Part shown: one piece after another, positions 35,668 to 55,400 of the stretch
Position numbering within the stretch: the first letter of the stretch is position 1
Layout of the letters: each line of letters begins with the position of its first letter
NCBI GenBank assembly: GCA_965219415.1
Contig: CBDCNP010000002.1
Location: forward strand, 4,192,001 to 4,256,000
Source: Candidatus Marinacidobacterales bacterium
GTDB taxonomy: Bacteria; Acidobacteriota; Vicinamibacteria; Marinacidobacterales; DATDRI01
Direction: 5' to 3'
DNA length: 64,000 nucleotides
Translations under genes and position numbers: made by a program
Notes under the pieces: generated by a model
The model's input: only the letters and a program-made list of their open reading frames with translations
Told to the model about the DNA's origin: nothing
The model's database searches: none

Positions 35668-36683
<1,016 letters not shown>

Positions 36684-39874: not shown

Positions 39875-40024
39875 TCTTACGTGCTAGAGTCGCCGCTTTC
39901 TATGTTCGACTGCTTGTTCGTTTCGGCGTTCTGTGAATAACCTACTAAACCGGACTACTGATCCGCCCCGGGTTTTCCGGAGACTGTTTTAGTTGAGTCT
40001 CGCCATCTCTAGCGAGCCTTCCTG

Positions 40025-41424
40025 GGTGATGTCTTAAGATTCCTGTCAAAGAAAAACGATGTATGGTTCCCCAAGCTCAAACCCGTCCCCGTCATGGGGA
40101 CAGAAAAGGAGAACCATACATCATGGGAAAGGTACTACCGAGTCAGCGATTGCTCAAGCAGTTCGAGGAACAACTGGTATTTGGGGAGATGAATCTCTCG
40201 GAGATCGTCCGGTCGGGAGCTCAGATGATGCTTCAATATGCGTTGGAGCGCGAGGTGACGGAGGCGTTGGGTCGAAACTACTATGAGAACGCTCCGGCAA
40301 CGACGAAGGAGAAGGGACGACGCAACGGGTATGAGTCGCATCGGGTCCTCACGGGCGAGGGAGCGGTGACGGTGCAAGTGCCGCGGGTACGAGAAACAGA
40401 GAAGGTGTTTCAGTCAAAGATTCTCGACGCCTACGTGAGCCGGACCGAGAAACTCGATGAACTGATCGCGCGGATGTACGTCCACGGGATGTCGACGCGT
40501 GACATTGAGGCGACGTTCGCGGACGTGCTGAGCGGCACGGGTGTCTCGAAGTCGGTGGTGAGCCGGGTCACACGGTGTCTGTCGGAGGATTTCGAGGCGT
40601 TTCGAAAACGGGATCTCTCGAACGAGAAGCTGTTGTATCTCGAGCTCGACGGCACGTACCTGCGCTACCACCAAGGAGCGGAGAGGAAAGAGCCCATCCT
40701 CGTTGCGACCGGCTATCGCGCTGATGGGACGCGAGTTCTTCTTCATATCGGTGTCGGCAACCGAGAATCCTACGAGAACTGGAAGGGGTTCTTGCAGGAG
40801 ATAGTGGCCCGAGGAATGAGGGAGCCGTTGCTCATCGTGACGGACGGGAATCCTGGAGTGCTCAAAGCGATCGCAGAGGTCTTCCCTCGAAGCCTCAAGC
40901 AACGTTGCCAGAAGCACCGCCTCGAGAACATCCTGGGCAAGGCTCCGAAGGAAGTGCGCGACGAACTCAAGGCGGCCATCCTTGAGTCGTTCCATGCGAA
41001 CAGCTACGAGCAAGGGCTGAAGAAGGGTCGGGAGGTGATCGCTCGGTACCGTCAACGATTCCCGAGCGCGATGAAGTGCATGGAAGAGACCCTCGAAGCA
41101 TGTCTTCAGGCGCTACGCCTTCCTGCGGCGCATCACAAAAGGCTTCGCACGTCGAATCTACTTGAGCGCACGTTCGGAGAGCACAAACGTCGCACAAAGG
41201 TCATTCCTCACTTCTTCACCGAGGAGGCCGCGATGAAACTCTCGTTCGCTGTGCTCTTGGCCGCCGCAAACAAATGGCGCGGCGTGAGGATGGATGTCTT
41301 CGCCGCTAGGAAAGTCGAGGAGCTTCGCAACGAGCTTCTCCCGCAAGGCACGTCGGAGGAATCAGCAGCTTAACCGAGCGCGGGGAACCGTACGGAGATT
41401 TGACAGGAAAATTAAGACTTGACC
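40025..41424 (+). mobile_element. IS256-family element inserted in an IS3 end fragment (39959-41518)
   Basis: IRs GGTGATGTCTTAAGATTCCTGTCAAA / GGTCAAGTCTTAATTTTCCTGTCAAA; 8-bp TSD CCTTCCTG. Confidence 0.95.
40123..41373 (+). CDS. IS256 (Mutator) transposase
   Basis: RRNGY, GMSTRDI, LDGTY, VTDG, QRCQKH, TSNLLER. Confidence 0.93.
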   Translation: MGKVLPSQRLLKQFEEQLVFGEMNLSEIVRSGAQMMLQYALEREVTEALGRNYYENAPATTKEKGRRNGYESHRVLTGEGAVTVQVPRVRETEKVFQSKILDAYVSRTEKLDELIARMYVHGMSTRDIEATFADVLSGTGVSKSVVSRVTRCLSEDFEAFRKRDLSNEKLLYLELDGTYLRYHQGAERKEPILVATGYRADGTRVLLHIGVGNRESYENWKGFLQEIVARGMREPLLIVTDGNPGVLKAIAEVFPRSLKQRCQKHRLENILGKAPKEVRDELKAAILESFHANSYEQGLKKGREVIARYRQRFPSAMKCMEETLEACLQALRLPAAHHKRLRTSNLLERTFGEHKRRTKVIPHFFTEEAAMKLSFAVLLAAANKWRGVRMDVFAARKVEELRNELLPQGTSEESAA

Positions 41425-41518
41425 CCTTCCTGCGACCGATAGTAGTTCATCTCGTACTCGACGGGGGAGACATTTCCGATCGGCTCCAAGAGTCGTTGCG
41501 TGTTGTACCAATGCACCC

Positions 41519-41642
41519 CGTCCTGTGCCAAAACTCGGCCCAGCCGGCATCGACGAAAGAACTGCGCCTCTCGAAATCAGGTAAAATTCTAGCACGCAAA
41601 CAGGTTACGCGGCGGCCACCAACACTTGACTGCGGAAGCACA
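41519..41642. repeat. 124-bp B-A hybrid; inverted copy at 25662-25785
   Basis: CGTCCTGTGCC...CAACACTTGACTGCGGAAGCAC. Confidence 0.8.
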
Positions 41643-41696
41643 CATCGATGGAGCGGTTGCGTGTCCTTCATCATTATTGTAGTCATTATAGTCGGC

Positions 41697-42981
41697 TGTG
41701 CATCGTCAAAACTGCTCCGCCCACGAAATCAAGACTTACGCTCCGCTTGAATTCCGGGCCGAAGACGGCGAAACTCCGCCGCTATGCTCAACGTTGTTGT
41801 CTTCCTCGTCTCACTTGGCGTCCGTGCCATTCGGGCGATGTGTCGGCGCCGCGCCGACCTGGTGTTGGAGAACGTCGCTTTGCGGCAGCAAGTGACGGCG
41901 CTGAAGAAAGAGCGCCCACGCCCACCGCTCGACGACACGGAACGGGCTTTCTGGGTTGCTCTTCGAGGTTCGTGGCCCGTGTGGGCGAGCCGCCTGCTCA
42001 TCGTCCACGCGGACACCGTGGCCCGTTGGCATCGCGACCGATTCCGACGGTACTGGGCAAATATCTCGCAGCGCCGCCATCCCGGTCGGCCTCGGATTGA
42101 TGCCGAGATTCGTCGCCTCGTCCGCACGATGGCGCAAGACGGCTGGGGGGCGCCACGCATCCATGCTGAGCTCACCAAGCTCGGTTTCATCATCTCCGAG
42201 ATCACGGTGTCGCGATACCTGCCGCGGCGTCCCGCGGAGCCCGACCAGCTGAAACGATGGATGGCTTTCTTGCGCAACCATAAAGACGATATCGCCGCCA
42301 TGGATCTGTTCACCGTGCCCACCGCGTCGCTCCGGCTGCTGTACGGCTTCTTCGTCATCGAGCACGGTCGCCGGCACATCGTTCACTTCAACGCCACGTT
42401 CCACCCGACGTCTGCTTGGGTTATTCAGCAACTACGCGAGGCGTTTCCCTACGACACCGCTCCGAGATATCTCATCTTCGATCGCGACTTCATCTTTAGC
42501 GCTGCGGTCATCGAGTTCATCAAGGCAACGGGCACAAAACCCGTTCGCACTTCGTTTCGCAGCCCATGGCAAAACGGAACCGCGGAGCGGTGGGTCGGCA
42601 GCTGCCGTCGCGAGCTCCTTGAGCACGTCGTGGTTCTCGGTGCATGTCATCTCATCCGGCTCGTGCGAGCTTACATCAGCTACTATCATGAGGACCGTTG
42701 CCACTTGGGGCTGAACAAGGACACACCGAGCTTGAGAACGGTCACGCACCGACCGTCTCCTACGGCGAAAGTAGTCGCACTGCCGCGAGTCGGTGGACTG
42801 CACCATCGATACGAGTGGCGAGAGGCAGCCTGAGTCAGCTTGGTCGCTCGCGTTACTCGGCTGGTCGCCGAGAAGTTCGTTCTCAGCACCTTCCCTCGCG
42901 CGCTGACCACGCTCTCCAGCATGTGCTCGAGGGCGGTCCGGGCCCTAGAGTCCAGTCCCGGATTAATAATGATGATGGACA
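41697..42981 (+). mobile_element. rve/DDE element, type E, full length
   Basis: Ends TGTGCATCGTCAAAACT / TGTCCATCATCATTATT; second full copy 51926-53211; flanks unrelated. Confidence 0.9.
41784..42833 (+). CDS. Integrase-core (rve) DDE transposase
   Basis: [36 protein letters not shown]. Confidence 0.9.
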   Translation: MLNVVVFLVSLGVRAIRAMCRRRADLVLENVALRQQVTALKKERPRPPLDDTERAFWVALRGSWPVWASRLLIVHADTVARWHRDRFRRYWANISQRRHPGRPRIDAEIRRLVRTMAQDGWGAPRIHAELTKLGFIISEITVSRYLPRRPAEPDQLKRWMAFLRNHKDDIAAMDLFTVPTASLRLLYGFFVIEHGRRHIVHFNATFHPTSAWVIQQLREAFPYDTAPRYLIFDRDFIFSAAVIEFIKATGTKPVRTSFRSPWQNGTAERWVGSCRRELLEHVVVLGACHLIRLVRAYISYYHEDRCHLGLNKDTPSLRTVTHRPSPTAKVVALPRVGGLHHRYEWREAA

Positions 42982-43462
42982 GGCCAAATGTTTATCAATT
43001 ATGGTCAGTTCGCCGCAGATCTTTGAAGCTGAATGCCGGACGCCAAGGCAAATTCAGCTGGCAAATGCTTTCTGCCGCTATCTCGAAATGGCAGATCGAT
43101 TGGCCGATTAGATGACATCCCGTCCTGTGCGGTGCTTGGTGGGCTCCATCACGATTACCGGTTGTCACGCGTCGCCTGACGGACCTAGCTTCTCGCGGGG
43201 AACAACGCGTTCTTTCTCAAGCACGTTATTGCGTCGGTGGCCCGGCAGCGACAGAGTGCAGAACCTCCACCGAGGCGAACACGAGTTCGCAGGACCTCAA
43301 CTCCCATGGCTGTCTGCCCGTCAATACGCGATCTTCTTTTTTGCGGATCACAGCTCACGGCGTGCGTGCGCCGGGCAATGTTAGAGCAAGTTGGCGCGCT
43401 TGTGCTCGGTACATCGCTGCAACCGGCAACCCGGCCACTTCTCCAGCGCTTTCGTCAGCCCG

Positions 43463-44360
43463 GTAGGGTCGAGGGCTGGCGCGGTGCTCCGTAGGCGCGG
43501 CCTATCTGTTTCTCCCCGTTTCCTGTGGGAGTGCCTCACTAGCCGCACCGTAAGTCCGTTTCCAGCCCCCGCCACATCGCACGCAGCGTACGGCTTTCCC
43601 GCACTACGCGCTCCTGCACACTTCCCGCGAAGGGTTATGTGACCTATCGAGCCGGGGTGTCTTTCGGCGAATCTACGAGATATCGAACTCGGTAATCGAA
43701 CAGTCCGACAGTCGCGTACATCCATCGCCTACTCCATCGCTTCCAGCCGAAACCTTGGCGCAAGAAGCGCCAAGACTTCTCGGCCTTCGCCTTGACGTAT
43801 ATCCTTCGTCTCAGCTCCTGCAGAGTGATGGGTGATTTTGTCATCTCACCCCTGCCTCGCTTGTTGACGAAGGAGTTGTGTGCAGCAGGGCCCCTTTGCT
43901 CCACGGGCGTTGCCCCGTTTCAACGCTACTACGGACCCAGCCGCCACCGTCTCGTCTTCGACCGTTTTCCCGGGGCCTCCGGTTATGCGGTCTACCTTGC
44001 TCCGTCGATTTCTCGACGGGACGAGGACGGCTTCTCCAGTTGCTTGGCATGTCCTTGTCACCGTGCTGTCCCTACCACCCCGCCACAGGGATGTGCCTCA
44101 TCAGATAGTCTGACAACACATCCTGTTGCCTTCGTCCGACACGAGAAAACTCGGCCTCTGGGGTCTATTTTTTTGTCGGGGCCACCTATGGGTTCACTTG
44201 TGTTACGGCCCGGTGACTCGCTCACCATCCTCAAGATGGCTTTGTCAGTCAGCTTCATCCGTCTCGTTTCCTCCACGAACGTGACTCAAGCTACGGGGCG
44301 CTAACTTTTTCCCCGGTGGGACTCTCTCCCACTGAACATGCCAGCCTTCGCTGGACGCAC
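43463..44360 (-). ncRNA. Group II intron with internally deleted RT ORF
   Basis: 5' GTGCG, 3' ...CGACCCTAC; domain V/VI-like GAGCGCGTAGTGCGGGAAA...; RT remnant MTKSPITLQELRRRIYVKAK fused to GFGWKRW. Confidence 0.88.
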
Positions 44361-44439
44361 TCGTGTCCAAAAATACAAACGAACCCTCGAAGACTCTATC
44401 CACCAAGGGCACAGTTTTGGCACAGGACGCGTGGCAGGG

Positions 44440-45999
44440 TTAACTGGCCCTGCCCACTGTGCTTGCGCGCAGCCCCTTCCAGGTGCTGTAGCACATGGCG
44501 ACCAGCACCAGCGCGAAGGGGAGGCCGGTGGCGAGGGTGGCTGCCTGTGCAGCCACGAGGCCGCCGCCGAGCAGCAGCGCGATGGCGATGATCCCCTCGA
44601 GAACGCACCAGAACACTCGCTGGGCGACTGGCGCATCCAGCTTGCCGCCGGCGGTGATGGTGTCGATGACCAGCGATCCAGAGTCGGAGGATGTGACGAA
44701 GAACACCACAATCAGCACGATGCCGAGGAACGACGTGATGTTCGCAAGCGGCAGCGTCTCCAGCATCGTAAACAGGGCTATCTCCGGCTGCTGCGCCTGC
44801 ACCGCCGCGATCACCTCGGGATGACCGTGGTCAACGTACTGCGATACCGCAGTCCCGCCGAAGGCGTTCATCCAGATCGCGGCAACCAGCGTCGGGATGA
44901 TCAGCATGCAGGCAGTCAGCTCGCGCACCGTCCGGCCGCGCGAGACCCGCGCGATAAACAAACCGACGAACGGGGACCATGAGATCCACCAGGCCCAGAA
45001 AAAGACAGTCCAGCCGTGCATGAAGTCGAGATCCTCTCGGCCCACCCAGTTGCTGAGGGGGCCGATCGCCGCGAGATACTGGCCGAGGCTGGTCACGGTG
45101 CCGGTGACAATGTCGAGCGTCGGTCCGACCGTCAGCATGAACGCCAGCAGTAGCAGGGCGAGCAGCAGGTTGGCCTCGCTCAGCCGCTTGACCCCCTTCT
45201 CCATCCCGCTGACAACCGACGCCAGCGCCATGCTGGTAATGCCGACGATCAGCAGCACCTGGGTGGTGGTGGTGTTGGTCGCCGGCGCGCCAAACAGGTG
45301 GGCCAGCCCCGCCGCCGCCTGTTGGGCACCCAGGCCGAGCGACGTGGCCAGCCCAAAGAGCGTGGCGAAGACGGCGAGGGTGTCGATGCCGTGGCCGAAC
45401 CGGCCCCACACCGCATCCCCCATGAGCGGATAGAACGCCGACCGTAGTGTCATCGGCAGGCCGAGGTTGTACGATGCGAAGGCAATCCCCAGCGCCACCA
45501 CTGCGTACATGGCCCACCCATGGATTCCCCAGTGGTAGATGGCGCTGGCCAAGCCGAGGTGGGCTGCCGCCGTGTCGGTCGCCTTGAGACCGAGCGGCGG
45601 TTGCAGGAAGTGCTCCACCGGCTCCGACACCCCGAAGAACATCAGGCCGATGCCTATCCCGGCAGCGAACAGCATGGCGAACCAAGCAGAGCGGGAGTAG
45701 TCCGGCCGGGCATCCGCGCCGCCCAGGCGCACGCGGCCGAGCGGCGTTACCACCAACATCAGGCAGAAGAGCACGAAGAGGTTGCCCGCGCTCATGAACA
45801 CCCAGTCGAAGGTCGACATGAGCCATGCGCGCAGCGCCCCGAAGGCGGCCGCCGCACCGGCCTGGAACACTAGCACGCCTGAAACGAACGCGATGATGGT
45901 CAGACTGGAGACGACGAAGACCGGATTGTGGATGTCGAGGCCGAGGAGTTGGACGTTGTCCTGACCCAGCTTGTAGTCGATCTTCGAGACCTCAGCCAT
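44440..45999 (-). CDS. BCCT-family transporter
   Basis: WFAMLFAAGIGIGLMF, HWGIHGW, WAWWISWSPFVG, TSSDS. Confidence 0.93.
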   Translation of the reverse strand: MAEVSKIDYKLGQDNVQLLGLDIHNPVFVVSSLTIIAFVSGVLVFQAGAAAAFGALRAWLMSTFDWVFMSAGNLFVLFCLMLVVTPLGRVRLGGADARPDYSRSAWFAMLFAAGIGIGLMFFGVSEPVEHFLQPPLGLKATDTAAAHLGLASAIYHWGIHGWAMYAVVALGIAFASYNLGLPMTLRSAFYPLMGDAVWGRFGHGIDTLAVFATLFGLATSLGLGAQQAAAGLAHLFGAPATNTTTTQVLLIVGITSMALASVVSGMEKGVKRLSEANLLLALLLLAFMLTVGPTLDIVTGTVTSLGQYLAAIGPLSNWVGREDLDFMHGWTVFFWAWWISWSPFVGLFIARVSRGRTVRELTACMLIIPTLVAAIWMNAFGGTAVSQYVDHGHPEVIAAVQAQQPEIALFTMLETLPLANITSFLGIVLIVVFFVTSSDSGSLVIDTITAGGKLDAPVAQRVFWCVLEGIIAIALLLGGGLVAAQAATLATGLPFALVLVAMCYSTWKGLRASTVGRAS

Positions 46000-46759
46000 A
46001 TGGTGTTGCAATAGCGTTTTACCATGCGGAGGCTTTTGTTTCTACCCTCGACCGGGCCCTTCGTGAATAGTCCGGGCTAGCCGGCGCGGAACCGCAGGTG
46101 CTTGCTCCGTTTACTGTTGCCGGCTCGTCCACGTCGTCGTGCGAGGACAGCTGTGCTCCGCAATAAGTCTATCCAGTGTCGATTGCTCGGTTTAGACCTG
46201 CCAAGTTCGGACGCTTCTGGCCGGTTTTATTTTTTGCGGATCACAACCCCGGTGGTGCGGACATCGAGCCACATTTCCGCAGTCGGATGAGAGCGCGAAC
46301 AAATGACGAAATCATGCGGGCATGGTGCCGGCAGACCGGAGACTAATCAAGTTCGCGCGCGCGGATGAATAAATAGAAGGCACAACTCGCTCTTGCTCGA
46401 CAAAACAAACCTTTCGACGTAAGCGTTCAGATTCGGCGAACGGTACGAGCTTCTGGGCGATCTTATTTATTGCAGATCACACCCATTAGACTGCACTTTA
46501 CCGGGCAAAAGAGCGAATGTTCGGTGATGCCGAAGGATACAGGTCTCCCTCCGGAGCGATGAATGTGGTCTCGCCCGATTGTAGTCGTCACGCCATTCAG
46601 TCAAGAGTCGGCGAGATGTTCCTCGTGGGAGACGGCTGTCAGGCCGTGCGCCTTGACGAACCGGCACAGCACCGCGTCGACTCGGAAAGACCAAGTTGCC
46701 CGTGGCCGAGGTCAGGGCTCCGCCGATGGCCAAGATTGACCGGATGCGAGATCGGGGTG

Positions 46760-51853: not shown

Positions 51854-51925
51854 AGGCGGGAGTGTAGCCGAAACTTGCGCGCTGTGGTCGCTGCGAGCTG
51901 TCCCCGTCCTGTGCCAAAACTCGGC

Positions 51926-53211
51926 TGTCCATCATCATTATTAATCCGGGACCGGACTCTAGGGCCCGGGCCGCCCTCGAGCACATGCTGGAGAGCGTGG
52001 TCAGCGCGCGAGGGAAGGTGCTGAGGACGAACTTCTCGGCGACCAGCCGAGTAACGCGAGCGACCAAGCTGACTCAGGCTGCCTCTCGCCACTCGTATCG
52101 ATGGTGCAGTCCACCGACTCGCGGCAGTGCGACGACTTTCGCCGTAGGAGACGGTCGGTGCGTGACCGTTCTCAAGCTCGGTGTGTCCTTGTTCAGTCCC
52201 AAGTGGCAACGGTCCTCATGATAGTAGCTGATGTAAGCTCGCACGAGCCGGATGAGATGACATGCACCGAGAACCACGACGTGCTCAAGGAGCTCGCGAC
52301 GGCAGCTGCCGATCCACCGCTCCGCGGTTCCGTTTTGCCATGGGCTGCGAAACGAAGTGCAAACGGGTTTTGTGCCCGTTGCCTTGATGAACTCGATGAC
52401 CGCAGCGTTAAAGATGAAGTCGCGATCGAAGATGAGATATCTCGGAGCGGTGTCGTAGGGAAACGCCTCGCGTAGTTGCTGAATAACCCAAGCAGACGTC
52501 GGGTGGAACGTGGCGTTGAAGTGAACGATGTGCCGACGACCGTGCTCGATGACGAAGAAACCGTACAGCAGCCGGAGCGACGCGGTGGGCACAGTGAACA
52601 GATCCATGGCGGCGATATCGTCTTTATGGTTGCGCAAGAAAGCCATCCATCGTTTCAGCTGGTCGGGCCCCGCGGGACGCCGCGGCAGGTATCGCGACAC
52701 CGTGCTCTCGGAGATGATGAAACCGAGCTTGGTGAGCTCAGCATGGATGCGTGGCGCCCCCCAGCCGTCTTGCGCCATCGTGCGGACGAGGCGACGAATC
52801 TCGGCATCAATCCGAGGCCGACCGGGATGGCAGCGCTGCGAGATCTTTGCCCAGTACCGTCGGAATCGGTCGCGATGCCAACGGGCTACGGTGTCCGCGT
52901 GGACGATGAGCAGGCGGCTCGCCCACACGGGCCACGAACCTCGAAGGGCAACCCAGAAAGCCCGTTCCGTGTCGTCGAGCGGTGGGCGTGGGCGCTCTTT
53001 CTTCAGCGCCGTCACTTGCTGCCGCAAAGCGACGTTCTCCAACACCAGGTCGGCGCGGCGCCGACACATCGCCCGAATGGCACGGACGCCAAGTGAGACG
53101 AGGAAGACAACAACGTTGAGCATAGCGGCGGAGTTTCGCCGTCTTCGGCCCGGAATTCAAGCGGAGCGTAAGTCCTTGATTTCGTGGGCGGAGCAGTTTT
53201 GACGATGCACA
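51926..53211 (-). mobile_element. rve element type E, second copy
   Basis: Near-identical to 41697-42981; right end joined inside a B terminus. Confidence 0.9.
52074..53123 (-). CDS. Integrase-core (rve) DDE transposase
   Basis: 349 aa, near-identical to 41784-42833. Confidence 0.9.
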
Positions 53212-53852
53212 AGCCAGCCTTTCTCTTGTCCGCGCCCGTGAAGGCACCTCTCTCGTGGCCAAAGAGTTCGGATTCCACGAGTTCAGCTGGTATAGCGCCG
53301 CAGTTGACCGCTTTGAAGGGTTGATCCCGCCGTGGACTGGCTCTGTAGATCGACCGGGCAAGCAACTCTTTCCCTGTGCCAGACTCGCCCTCTAAAAGGA
53401 TCGGCACTGATCGCGGAGCAACACGCCGCGCCTTGGCGATCACGCGAGCCATGGCTCGACTGCGGTGAATGATGTCAGCGAATTCGGGAGCCTCGGGAGG
53501 AAGCCCGGCGGCCAACTTCTCGAGGCGTTCGTCCGAACCTCGGAGGAGATCCGGTATGAACTCGGCCGACATGTCGAAGGGCACGGATGCCGTCCGTACG
53601 CCATGCTTAAGCGAGGACTCGATCAACTCACCTGGGAAGCGCGTCTTGGCCAGGATAATCCAGACCGCCGTCATGGCGGGAGTCCCTGGGCTCAGATGAA
53701 AGGTCAGCTCGGAATCCTTGCCGTAACGCACGAGTGACTCGGTCACGACCCGAACCGCTACTTCGTATATCTCGCCGAATTGCGTGGGACCAGACAACGA
53801 CTTGTGGCATACGGCCACTTGTGCCTTGGTCTGAGGCCGGAGCCATTCTAGG

Positions 53853-55252
53853 GGTCAAGTCTTAATTTTCCTGTCAAATCTCCGTACGGTTCCCCGCGCT
53901 CGGTTAAGCTGCTGATTCCTCCGACGTGCCTTGCGGGAGAAGCTCGTTGCGAAGCTCCTCGACTTTCCTAGCGGCGAAGACATCCATCCTCACGCCGCGC
54001 CATTTGTTTGCGGCGGCCAAGAGCACAGCGAACGAGAGTTTCATCGCGGCCTCCTCGGTGAAGAAGTGAGGAATGACCTTTGTGCGACGTTTGTGCTCTC
54101 CGAACGTGCGCTCAAGTAGATTCGACGTGCGAAGCCTTTTGTGATGCGCCGCAGGAAGGCGTAGCGCCTGAAGACATGCTTCGAGGGTCTCTTCCATGCA
54201 CTTCATCGCGCTCGGGAATCGTTGACGGTACCGAGCGATCACCTCCCGACCCTTCTTCAGCCCTTGCTCGTAGCTGTTCGCATGGAACGACTCAAGGATG
54301 GCCGCCTTGAGTTCGTCGCGCACTTCCTTCGGAGCCTTGCCCAGGATGTTCTCGAGGCGGTGCTTCTGGCAACGTTGCTTGAGGCTTCGAGGGAAGACCT
54401 CTGCGATCGCTTTGAGCACTCCAGGATTCCCGTCCGTCACGATGAGCAACGGCTCCCTCATTCCTCGGGCCACTATCTCCTGCAAGAACCCCTTCCAGTT
54501 CTCGTAGGATTCTCGGTTGCCGACACCGATATGAAGAAGAACTCGCGTCCCATCAGCGCGATAGCCGGTCGCAACGAGGATGGGCTCTTTCCTCTCCGCT
54601 CCTTGGTGGTAGCGCAGGTACGTGCCGTCGAGCTCGAGATACAACAGCTTCTCGTTCGAGAGATCCCGTTTTCGAAACGCCTCGAAATCCTCCGACAGAC
54701 ACCGTGTGACCCGGCTCACCACCGACTTCGAGACACCCGTGCCGCTCAGCACGTCCGCGAACGTCGCCTCAATGTCACGCGTCGACATCCCGTGGACGTA
54801 CATCCGCGCGATCAGTTCATCGAGTTTCTCGGTCCGGCTCACGTAGGCGTCGAGAATCTTTGACTGAAACACCTTCTCTGTTTCTCGTACCCGCGGCACT
54901 TGCACCGTCACCGCTCCCTCGCCCGTGAGGACCCGATGCGACTCATACCCGTTGCGTCGTCCCTTCTCCTTCGTCGTTGCCGGAGCGTTCTCATAGTAGT
55001 TTCGACCCAACGCCTCCGTCACCTCGCGCTCCAACGCATATTGAAGCATCATCTGAGCTCCCGACCGGACGATCTCCGAGAGATTCATCTCCCCAAATAC
55101 CAGTTGTTCCTCGAACTGCTTGAGCAATCGCTGACTCGGTAGTACCTTTCCCATGATGTATGGTTCTCCTTTTCTGTCCCCATGACGGGGACGGGTTTGA
55201 GCTTGGGGAACCATACATCGTTTTTCTTTGACAGGAATCTTAAGACATCACC
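53853..55252 (-). mobile_element. IS256-family element, second copy
   Basis: Same IRs and identical protein; 9-bp TSD CATTCTAGG. Confidence 0.95.
53904..55154 (-). CDS. IS256 transposase
   Basis: Identical translation to 40123-41373. Confidence 0.93.
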   Translation of the reverse strand: MGKVLPSQRLLKQFEEQLVFGEMNLSEIVRSGAQMMLQYALEREVTEALGRNYYENAPATTKEKGRRNGYESHRVLTGEGAVTVQVPRVRETEKVFQSKILDAYVSRTEKLDELIARMYVHGMSTRDIEATFADVLSGTGVSKSVVSRVTRCLSEDFEAFRKRDLSNEKLLYLELDGTYLRYHQGAERKEPILVATGYRADGTRVLLHIGVGNRESYENWKGFLQEIVARGMREPLLIVTDGNPGVLKAIAEVFPRSLKQRCQKHRLENILGKAPKEVRDELKAAILESFHANSYEQGLKKGREVIARYRQRFPSAMKCMEETLEACLQALRLPAAHHKRLRTSNLLERTFGEHKRRTKVIPHFFTEEAAMKLSFAVLLAAANKWRGVRMDVFAARKVEELRNELLPQGTSEESAA

Positions 55253-55400
55253 CATTCTAGGAACGGCATCACCTCTTTTTCGGGATAATCGCTTATCAGC
55301 ACGGCAGCGTCGTAGGAGCGCGTGCTGAGCGCTTGGGCGATCGGCCCTTTACCGACAAGCGGCTCTTCCTGGGGCGCTCGAAGATCAGTTTGGCCGACCC

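Follow-up and report, generated by a model that had tools for sequence, protein, structure and literature searches.

We describe a group II intron on the minus strand of a 64,000-nucleotide (nt) stretch of the genome of a Candidatus Marinacidobacterales bacterium (contig CBDCNP010000002.1, positions 4,192,001 to 4,256,000; the whole stretch is called the window here, and positions are counted from its first letter). Our reading, to which we give a probability of roughly 0.85, is that this IIB-like intron, which has lost the open reading frame (ORF) for its enzyme, has its homing site at the outer end of the terminal inverted repeats carried by an IS481-like transposon and its miniature derivatives. 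The repeated terminus ...TTTTTGGACACGA^CG is divided by the intron at a point two bases before the tip, and removal of the intron restores TATTTTTGGACACGA^CG. With up to three mismatches allowed, the restored 17-mer is present nine times in the window (eight uninterrupted copies and the split one); shuffles gave 0.10 expected matches, and 0/100 reached nine. An alignment of the nine copies showed that conservation covers GGACACGA and the CG and then ends, and that the aligned copies have ~35 nt in common, up to GGACACGACG, before they diverge. Genome-wide, the 14-base core of the terminus (up to two mismatches) has 316 matches, of which 254 are followed by CG and unrelated DNA and 4 by the intron.

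The divided terminus is of the kind that we call type C. Type-C ends inserted in fragments of the intron retain the CG, where the intact intron has other bases; the CG is therefore part of the element and not a duplicated target. Arranged in inverted pairs, type-C ends bound elements of 119-129 nt (about one third of 34 pairs), of intermediate sizes and of ~1350-1430 nt. One long element, L070, measures 1348 bp and encodes a 371-amino acid (aa) transposase with HTH_32, HTH_21 and rve_3 domains between inverted repeats of ~24 bp. The features expected of an IS481-like element, namely a single rve-type transposase with an N-terminal HTH, terminal inverted repeats and multiple copies, are all found in L070 and the ~254 ends. 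The terminus serves as inverted repeat to an insertion sequence that we call IS481-like and to its miniature derivatives, the family name being taken from Pfam architecture and not from ISfinder. The number of ends agrees with the original prediction, made from the sequence alone, that such termini are abundant targets. That they are also long-lived goes beyond what we observed, which is that the locus around the intron is common to two other genomes at 98-99% identity.

Read on the minus strand, the sequence across the two intron boundaries is ...GTTTGTATTTTTGGACACGA / GTGCGTCCAGCG ... GCCCTCGACCCTAC / CGGGCTGACG. Both ends conform to the group II pattern of a 5' GUGYG and a 3' AY, and the same boundaries recur in 37 homologous junctions. 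Domain I matches the whole of the Rfam model RF02003 (positions 1-138) with 120 bits against a gathering score of 49 (E 2.6e-26), and a consensus fold of nine diverse homologues has the domain I architecture with 13 covarying pairs. The domain V hairpin is evident by eye and is kept in relatives with G-U/G-C variation. Comparison of nine full copies shows just four positions in 898 nt at which the window copy departs from the majority; one of these private substitutions changes a domain V G-C pair to G-U and retains the pairing. By its sequence, the feature is a non-autonomous, ORF-less, IIB-like group II intron that is predicted to splice.

Exon-binding site 1 (EBS1) is the exact complement of the final seven bases of the 5' exon, GACACGA, which form intron-binding site 1 (IBS1; 7/7 pairs), and the stem that closes its loop covaries (U-A to C-G). 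The A-run of EBS2 occupies the 5' strand of an internal loop further down the EBS1 arm, the expected order, and forms seven contiguous pairs with the T-tract of the terminus in one register and six in another, all seven being A-U. The original prediction had named both segments as EBS-like, in canonical order, and had proposed that domain I be folded to confirm them; the consensus fold indeed puts both in loops. Its placement of the intron two bases from the tip was likewise borne out, by the copies of the 17-mer and the end of conservation. The contigs from RNA libraries described below match on either side of the EBS2-EBS1 stretch (window 44085-44175), with differing letters between, as may be expected were several re-targeted relatives present side by side in the communities sampled.

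A DNA search of 61 genomes, including that of the window, gave matches in 13, and 5' junctions were taken from the matches listed. Among these, 28 of 37 junctions, from eight related genomes, are type-C termini. They occupy at least 12 different upstream contexts, as read by eye, and the occupied ends are most commonly the left repeat of full elements, but right repeats are occupied as well, among them that of a second element in which the transposase frame extends to the tip. In the window's own genome, where blastn found 34 matches to the intron, the window copy is the only complete one and the other 33 are fragments. Four of the five matches that include the 5' end follow a type-C terminus; of the 24 that include the 3' end, 21 continue with CG and then differing DNA, and three with CA. 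The ORF-less form, at 898-900 nt, is also present in four other genomes at 98-99% identity, and ten full copies of it, one with a miniature-element insertion, have seven different 3' flanks.

The remaining nine of the 37 junctions are not type C. A second terminus, ...GGATGAATAAATGGAAGGGA^CA, holds four of them, likewise two bases from its tip, and two others carry the last eight bases of that terminus without its repeat; one is unrelated, and two are antisense in a coding sequence. The sister lineage (L038, L048 and L055) is inserted in ...AAUAAAUGGAAGGGA^CA, two bases inside this different terminus. The two antisense junctions lie in an apparent protein-kinase glycine-loop coding motif (Pkinase E 0.004, below the cut-off). 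They belong to a lineage of 73-77% identity (L061, 211-300, and L064) in which the motif reads MGEVYRARDIKLGRDVAIKVL, and this kinase-like motif could be another multi-copy target.

A wider set of relatives was obtained by a pattern scan of a species-representative genome collection in which the EBS1 letters were left free. It gave at least 80 loci (of 110 stretches), mostly from Acidobacteriota metagenome-assembled genomes and some from other phyla, according to the record titles; the counts that follow hold among the matches listed. With a domain I profile, the 5' end could be located in 60 junctions (58 loci); only matches that began at profile position 1, covered at least 280 positions and had at least 40 nt of upstream sequence were kept. 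In 35 of the 60, the 5' exon ends with a T-run, one to three G and 5-7 bases, as type-B and type-C ends do. A homologue of the window genome's rve transposases lies within 2.5 kb upstream in 16 of 61 oriented loci, and in ten of those 16 it is no more than 200 nt away and either reads off from the intron (left repeat) or stops just before it (right repeat). The 3' exon starts with CG or CA in 27 of 33 placeable cases, four of the 27 needing a one-base shift of the profile end. The pattern expected of insertion at transposon tips is thus seen in a majority of the clade, not throughout. At L134 and L162, introns stand head to tail, the 3' end of one forming the 5' exon of the next.

Changes in the target are matched by changes in the exon-binding loops of these relatives. 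Where the exon of L052 reads GACAGGA its loop is UCCUGUC, and where that of L037 reads GACAGUA the loop is UGCUGUC. The sister lineage at the second terminus has the exon GAAGGGA with EBS1 UCCUUUC and EBS2 AAUUUA, its EBS2 loop AAUUUAAAG standing opposite exon AAUAAAUG. In L061 the exon GACUUC pairs with EBS1 GAAGUC, and the EBS2 loop found with this exon is AGAAGUCA. Overall, 15 of 19 sequences form seven contiguous IBS1-EBS1 pairs, and the four that fall short are L035 (ectopic), L053 (a C-C mismatch), L055 (six pairs) and L061 (one mismatch); EBS2 forms runs of 5-8 pairs in 18 of the 19, with loop changes that match three exon types. Seven contiguous IBS1-EBS1 pairs were also found at 39 of the 60 junctions of the wider set.

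Covariation was scored on 68 distinct sequences, identical rows and rows without 12 nt of exon having been dropped. All seven IBS1-EBS1 pairs vary on both sides, and 89.9% of their cells are paired. The figure for the tested structure as a whole is 93.2%, as opposed to 38.9-49.9% with the partner slid along by 1-3 columns, and 0/500 shuffles reached the observed pairing or covariation score. The relatedness of the sequences inflates the shuffle test; the slid control is unaffected by it. The original prediction had asked whether the 5' exons of homologues are rve-type termini whose IBS covary with the EBS, and the answer was positive on both counts, in 28 of 37 junctions and in 7/7 pairs.

The intron has a single reading frame, in which MTKSPITLQELRRRIYVKAKAEKSWRF is joined to LRQGFGWKRWSRRW..., and its 66-aa product has no Pfam match. 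Full-length relatives encode a 456-aa protein that has the same start and end as this remnant; the body of the reverse transcriptase (RT) was therefore removed in frame. In line with the original view of a non-autonomous intron whose RT was reduced in frame to ~66 aa, the product consists of 27 and 39 residues of the relatives' RT, and the RT/maturase domains (RVT_1 and GIIM), present in L038, are absent from the window intron. In the full-length introns L038 and L048, both arms of the hairpin found at the deletion junction border the RT coding body, so that the deletion spans the base of a stem; a weak match to the FsrA model also shows a stem here. L055, an ORF-less member of the sister lineage, has the same junction give or take one base, which reflects either a shared ancestor or a recurrent jump over the same stem. 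An extra 220 nt in L032 were considered as a remnant of the enzyme and rejected, as they are a miniature-element insertion: an element of ~220 nt (TGTTGTTTATCAC...AAAAAACAACA) is inserted in the introns of both L032 and L060, with duplications of 5-6 bp.

A search of the window's own genome for the GIIM domain gave no match, and the sister enzyme as query found no full-length homologue there, only remnants and one weak 137-aa fragment. The other four genomes with the 898-nt form have full-length group II enzymes that are 31-40% identical, and one of them (G016) has a truncated enzyme that is 65% identical. The nearest plasmid-borne enzymes, with generic annotation, are ~70% identical (Cupriavidus, Bradyrhizobium). 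No autonomous parent of the 898-nt form was found among the 61 genomes at the DNA level or among the five genomes that hold this form at the protein level. The window copy is, as judged from its sequence, intact and without a visible partner enzyme. Since no group II RT was found in its own genome, it is most likely a stranded relic there.

Taken together, these results suggest the following mechanism. The intron RNA, held by an RT/maturase that would be supplied in trans, would locate its DNA target by base pairing, EBS1 UCGUGUC with GACACGA and the A-run of EBS2 with the T-tract just upstream. Reverse splicing would then occur between A(-1) and C(+1), two bases before the transposon tip. As insertion takes place before the tip, the full recognised target lies inside the transposon, and every copy would be targetable at either end whatever its flank. 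The enzyme of the relatives, at 456 aa, leaves no room for an endonuclease domain, and we therefore infer priming from replication-fork DNA, as in RmInt1-type introns. The intron is oriented outward from the element and, at the left repeat, antisense to the transposase. The body of the RT gene was lost through a deletion over the base of a domain IV stem, which spared the first 27 codons, the probable usual binding place of intron-encoded proteins. The window copy may still be transcribed through read-through from the upstream BCCT transporter gene. Retrohoming in trans, the mode of priming and the present immobility of the window copy are put forward with less firmness than the anatomy, the identity of the target, the pairing and covariation of EBS and IBS, and the existence of multiple insertion sites.

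Several observations weigh against homing to the transposon terminus as we describe it. No target-site duplication is visible at the flanks of the 34 paired type-C ends, which are G/C-rich and look symmetric, so the tip of the terminus is defined by where conservation ends. Domain V is below threshold in Rfam: with looser thresholds RF00029 (domain V to the 3' end) matches 43613..43463 with 24.1 bits against a gathering score of 40 (E 0.053), a low score that is explained by a long insertion in domain VI. The EBS2 pairing consists of A and U only and has two possible registers, the IBS1-EBS1 pairing of L053 contains a mismatch, and L035 is inserted at an unrelated site. Some junctions are not independent: L002, L022 and L030 in the window's own genome share 90 nt of upstream context, L032, L044 and L050 have both flanks in common, and the window locus is shared with two further genomes. 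A protein search found the cognate RT in none of the five genomes that hold the 898-nt form, so mobilisation in trans is hypothetical, and the window's own genome is 96% complete with 8% contamination, so that an RT-bearing replicon could be missing. Finally, among the contigs over 43200-44700 from four runs, three of them of RNA libraries, none joins 44361 to 43462, although contigs cannot show absence. RNA-library contigs do overlap parts of the intron, but DNA carry-over is possible, and this weighs neither way on splicing. One RNA contig that links 43352 to 44361 through six other letters was rejected as a spliced product; we assign it to a different locus, at which an intact type-C end and a type-E end adjoin.

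The shared flanks, the near identity of the BCCT-miniature element-intron locus across three genomes and the missing cognate RT would all fit a purely historical association with the terminus, in which the intron entered one miniature element once, long ago, and was then copied along with its carrier, through transposition, segmental duplication and horizontal transfer. We regard this as very improbable. The intron parts the repeat from its last two bases, and a transposase would not bring along the CG and a new flank, as is seen at 21 of the 24 3' ends in the own genome; the upstream contexts include left and right repeats of full elements; and compensatory changes in EBS1 and EBS2 follow the different termini. 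A converse history, with the intron as the target beside which transposons insert, is almost certainly wrong. Miniature elements do enter these introns (a type-C tip in L059, a type-A tip in L065), and many fragments in the own genome start exactly at the tip of another element. However, an arriving element brings its whole tip, whereas here the intron separates the final two bases from the rest of the tip, a split that already contradicts such an order of events; moreover, the intron holds complements of the repeat in both exon-binding loops, and ~250 termini are without an intron.

Homing to the terminus as such leaves room for a different view of the present state of the intron, namely that it is still mobilised, in its own genome or in relatives, by an enzyme that we did not recognise (a distant group II RT, some other bacterial RT or an RT on a replicon absent from the assembly). 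The small number of private substitutions, the intact domain V pairing, the retention of the first 27 codons and the completeness of the genome would be consistent with it, as would the ~10 copies of the 898-nt form in G018, a genome with several group II RTs of 31-36% identity. We nevertheless consider present activity unlikely: the own genome has no GIIM domain and a single full copy of the intron, and in the RmInt1 family heterologous enzymes are mostly unable to mobilise even close introns (PMC4615759). It is more doubtful still that the whole clade is specialised on the last-but-two position of rve-type termini, always severing the CA or CG dinucleotide that the transposase processes, and that this position reflects coupling to transposition. 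If it were so, an endonuclease-less enzyme might use the nicked or single-stranded tip, or the free 3' OH of a transposition intermediate, for access or priming, and the intron would disarm the end as an obligate hyperparasite that diversifies together with insertion sequences.

Table 1. Coordinates in the window of the intron, its exons and the adjoining gene.
Feature	Position	Strand	Basis or remarks
BCCT transporter gene, co-oriented with the intron	44440..46011	minus	Pfam PF02028, E 3.6e-170
Body of the 72-nt miniature element (5' exon)	44361..44430	minus	left end CGTCCTGTGCCAAAAC (type B), right end ...GTATTTTTGGACACGA (type C); repeat families D3, D12, D19
IBS2, UAUUUUUG, T-tract of the terminus	44368..44375	minus	sequence, pairing
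IBS1, GACACGA, last 7 bases of the 5' exon	44361..44367	minus	sequence, pairing
Group II intron, ORF-less, 898 nt	44360..43463	minus	5' GUGCG ... CCCUAC 3'; sequence and Rfam RF02003
Domain I core	44334..44198	minus	Rfam RF02003 (group-II-D1D4-4)
EBS2, ACAAAAAAAT (RNA ACAAAAAAAU)	44175..44166	minus	internal loop of a domain I stem, 5' of EBS1
EBS1, UCGUGUC (TCGTGTC)	44144..44138	minus	9-nt terminal hairpin loop, consensus fold
Remnant ORF, 66 codons and stop	43844..43644	minus	RT residues 1-27 fused in frame to the last 39
Deletion junction, perfect hairpin CUUGGCGC-UUCUU-GCGCCAAG	43774..43754	minus	alignment with L038 and L048
Domain V, GCGCGUAGUGCGG GAAA GCCGUACGCUGCGUGC	43579..43611	minus	RF00029 alignment
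CG, last two bases of the type-C terminus, now start of the 3' exon	43461..43462	minus	genome-wide motif matches

The features around the intron are collected in Table 1. The stop codon of the BCCT gene lies 9 nt ahead of the miniature element. Consensus scans found no terminator-like site on the minus strand between this gene and the intron and no sigma-70-like promoter in 43250-44600. In L059 and L065, from genomes labelled as different genera and families, the region of window 44361-44660 (the 3' end of the BCCT gene, the miniature element and the start of the intron) is 98-99% identical, and the intron is ended at position 171 by a type-C element in the former and at position 67 by a type-A element in the latter. 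This suggests that the region is a recently shared mobile region.

Small elements have left their ends throughout the window, and we distinguish at least five types of end: A (...GGCGGAAGCAC), B (...TTTTGGCACAGGACG), C (...TTTTTGGACACGACG), D (...AATAAATAGAAGGCACA) and E (...TTTTGCGGAGCACA). Across the genome, with up to three mismatches, we counted ~852 C, 570 B (B and C cross-match), 501 A, 261 D and 210 E ends, and many of the elements that bear them are miniature (46-180 nt). The split CG is 108 nt away from the tip (43352) of a type-E end at 43330-43352. This end seems to bound an element at 41519-43352 that has a type-B start near 41519 and encodes a 349-aa rve_3 protein (41784-42833); a 99% identical inverted copy stands at 51925-53174. 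Other repeats in the window are a 100% identical inverted repeat of 1405 nt with a Mutator-family (IS256-like) transposase, at 40023-41427 and 53850-55254, and a 99% identical 300-nt repeat with matches to the ALIL pseudoknot, an IS3-type frameshift signal, at 682-798 and 35696-35812 (82 and 85 bits).

Fragments of the intron are themselves associated with such elements. Fragments of the 3' part outnumber those of the 5' part 23:4 in the window's own genome, and 5' fragments are common in relatives. Most of the 3' fragments start exactly at the tip of another element (for example at G000:C3:4841893, 4695048, 5138556, 4162621, 4155422, 4639699 and 4916019). The main cluster of breakpoints, seven cases with at least four end types, falls at intron positions 788-795, immediately 3' of domain V, and smaller clusters lie at 826-829, 840 and 854. 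In six of the seven cases at 788-795 the 5' breakpoint is an exact element tip and in one an unclassified end, and the DNA beyond the element is not intron. Neither a simple insertion nor a simple 5' truncation by aborted reverse transcription explains these fragments, given the non-intron DNA past the abutting element. In addition, an internal piece of the intron of 94-115 nt (positions 229-343) is found inside an AT-rich repeated element in four copies (G000:C3:3297943, 4166193, 4523670 and 4938938).

With the intron and its relatives there are now two independent cases in nature of a retroelement living on the terminal repeats of DNA transposons, and this second one is much the larger. Its covariation is unusually clear-cut, the seven exon-binding pairs having been rewritten repeatedly as the target repeat changed, and such a natural retargeting series would be useful for targetron engineering. 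Two features stand out, the constant two-base offset from the tip over a diversified clade and the spread of the ORF-less form without a cognate enzyme. Should insertion two bases from the tip disable the end, the introns would act as brakes on the expansion of insertion sequences in genomes overrun by miniature elements. The original prediction spoke of an intron programmed against the terminus; the specificity of homing that this implies stands, whereas the antagonism in its wording is not borne out by our observations.

The loss of the enzyme gene with retention of the ribozyme and an ORF remnant is a trait of other ORF-less bacterial introns, which a 2015 review describes as rare and nearly always accompanied by a related intron-encoded protein in the genome, with C.te.I1 as the exception (PMC4424553). 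The 898-nt form departs from this pattern in that it occurs in five genomes that all lack a closely related enzyme gene; by that account, spread of an ORF-less intron to several genomes without a recognisable partner is almost unknown in bacteria. Sites in multi-copy insertion sequences and frequently fragmented copies are also reported for RmInt1 in ISRm2011-2 and for E.c.I4 in IS3-like transposase genes, but those sites lie within the elements or transposase genes and not at the tip of the terminal repeat (PMC5894124, PMC3522654).

The original prediction had likened the intron to the IIC-attC introns that target integron attC sites. Class C introns typically have a short IBS1 and are not known to have an EBS2. 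Under this definition we rejected assignment of the window intron to class C, as its EBS2 is present and covaries and its target is a linear repeat sequence. The analogy itself stands: IIC-attC and terminator-homing class C introns are likewise endonuclease-less and exploit a repeated motif of another mobile system, but the class is described as inserting at stem-loop DNA motifs (PMC4424553), whereas the window intron has full EBS1 and EBS2 and reads the sequence of the repeat. Class D was rejected too, since its ORF motif LX3AX3PXLF[V/A]HW, as given in PMC4615759, is by eye absent from both the 456-aa sister enzyme and the 66-aa remnant.

Beyond RmInt2 in ISRm17, our literature search found no published group II introns at the termini of insertion sequences, and none for Acidobacteria. 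All copies of RmInt2 in Sinorhizobium meliloti GR4 lie in ISRm17 inverted repeats, and homing there was shown experimentally (Martinez-Rodriguez et al. 2014, PMC4615759; PMC5894124). The resemblance to the window intron is that it is a group II intron with an endonuclease-less enzyme and has IBS1, IBS2 and IBS3 inside the repeat; head-to-tail copies are noted for it, as we found at L134 and L162 (PMC4615759). Its authors point out that two repeats double the number of targets and ensure that one is in the lagging-strand orientation (PMC4615759). It differs in its class D ORF, the phylum of its host and the family of its insertion sequence, the window intron being ORF-less and one of a large re-targeted series. 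RmInt2 in ISRm17 is the closest precedent for the intron described here, closer than the IIC-attC introns.

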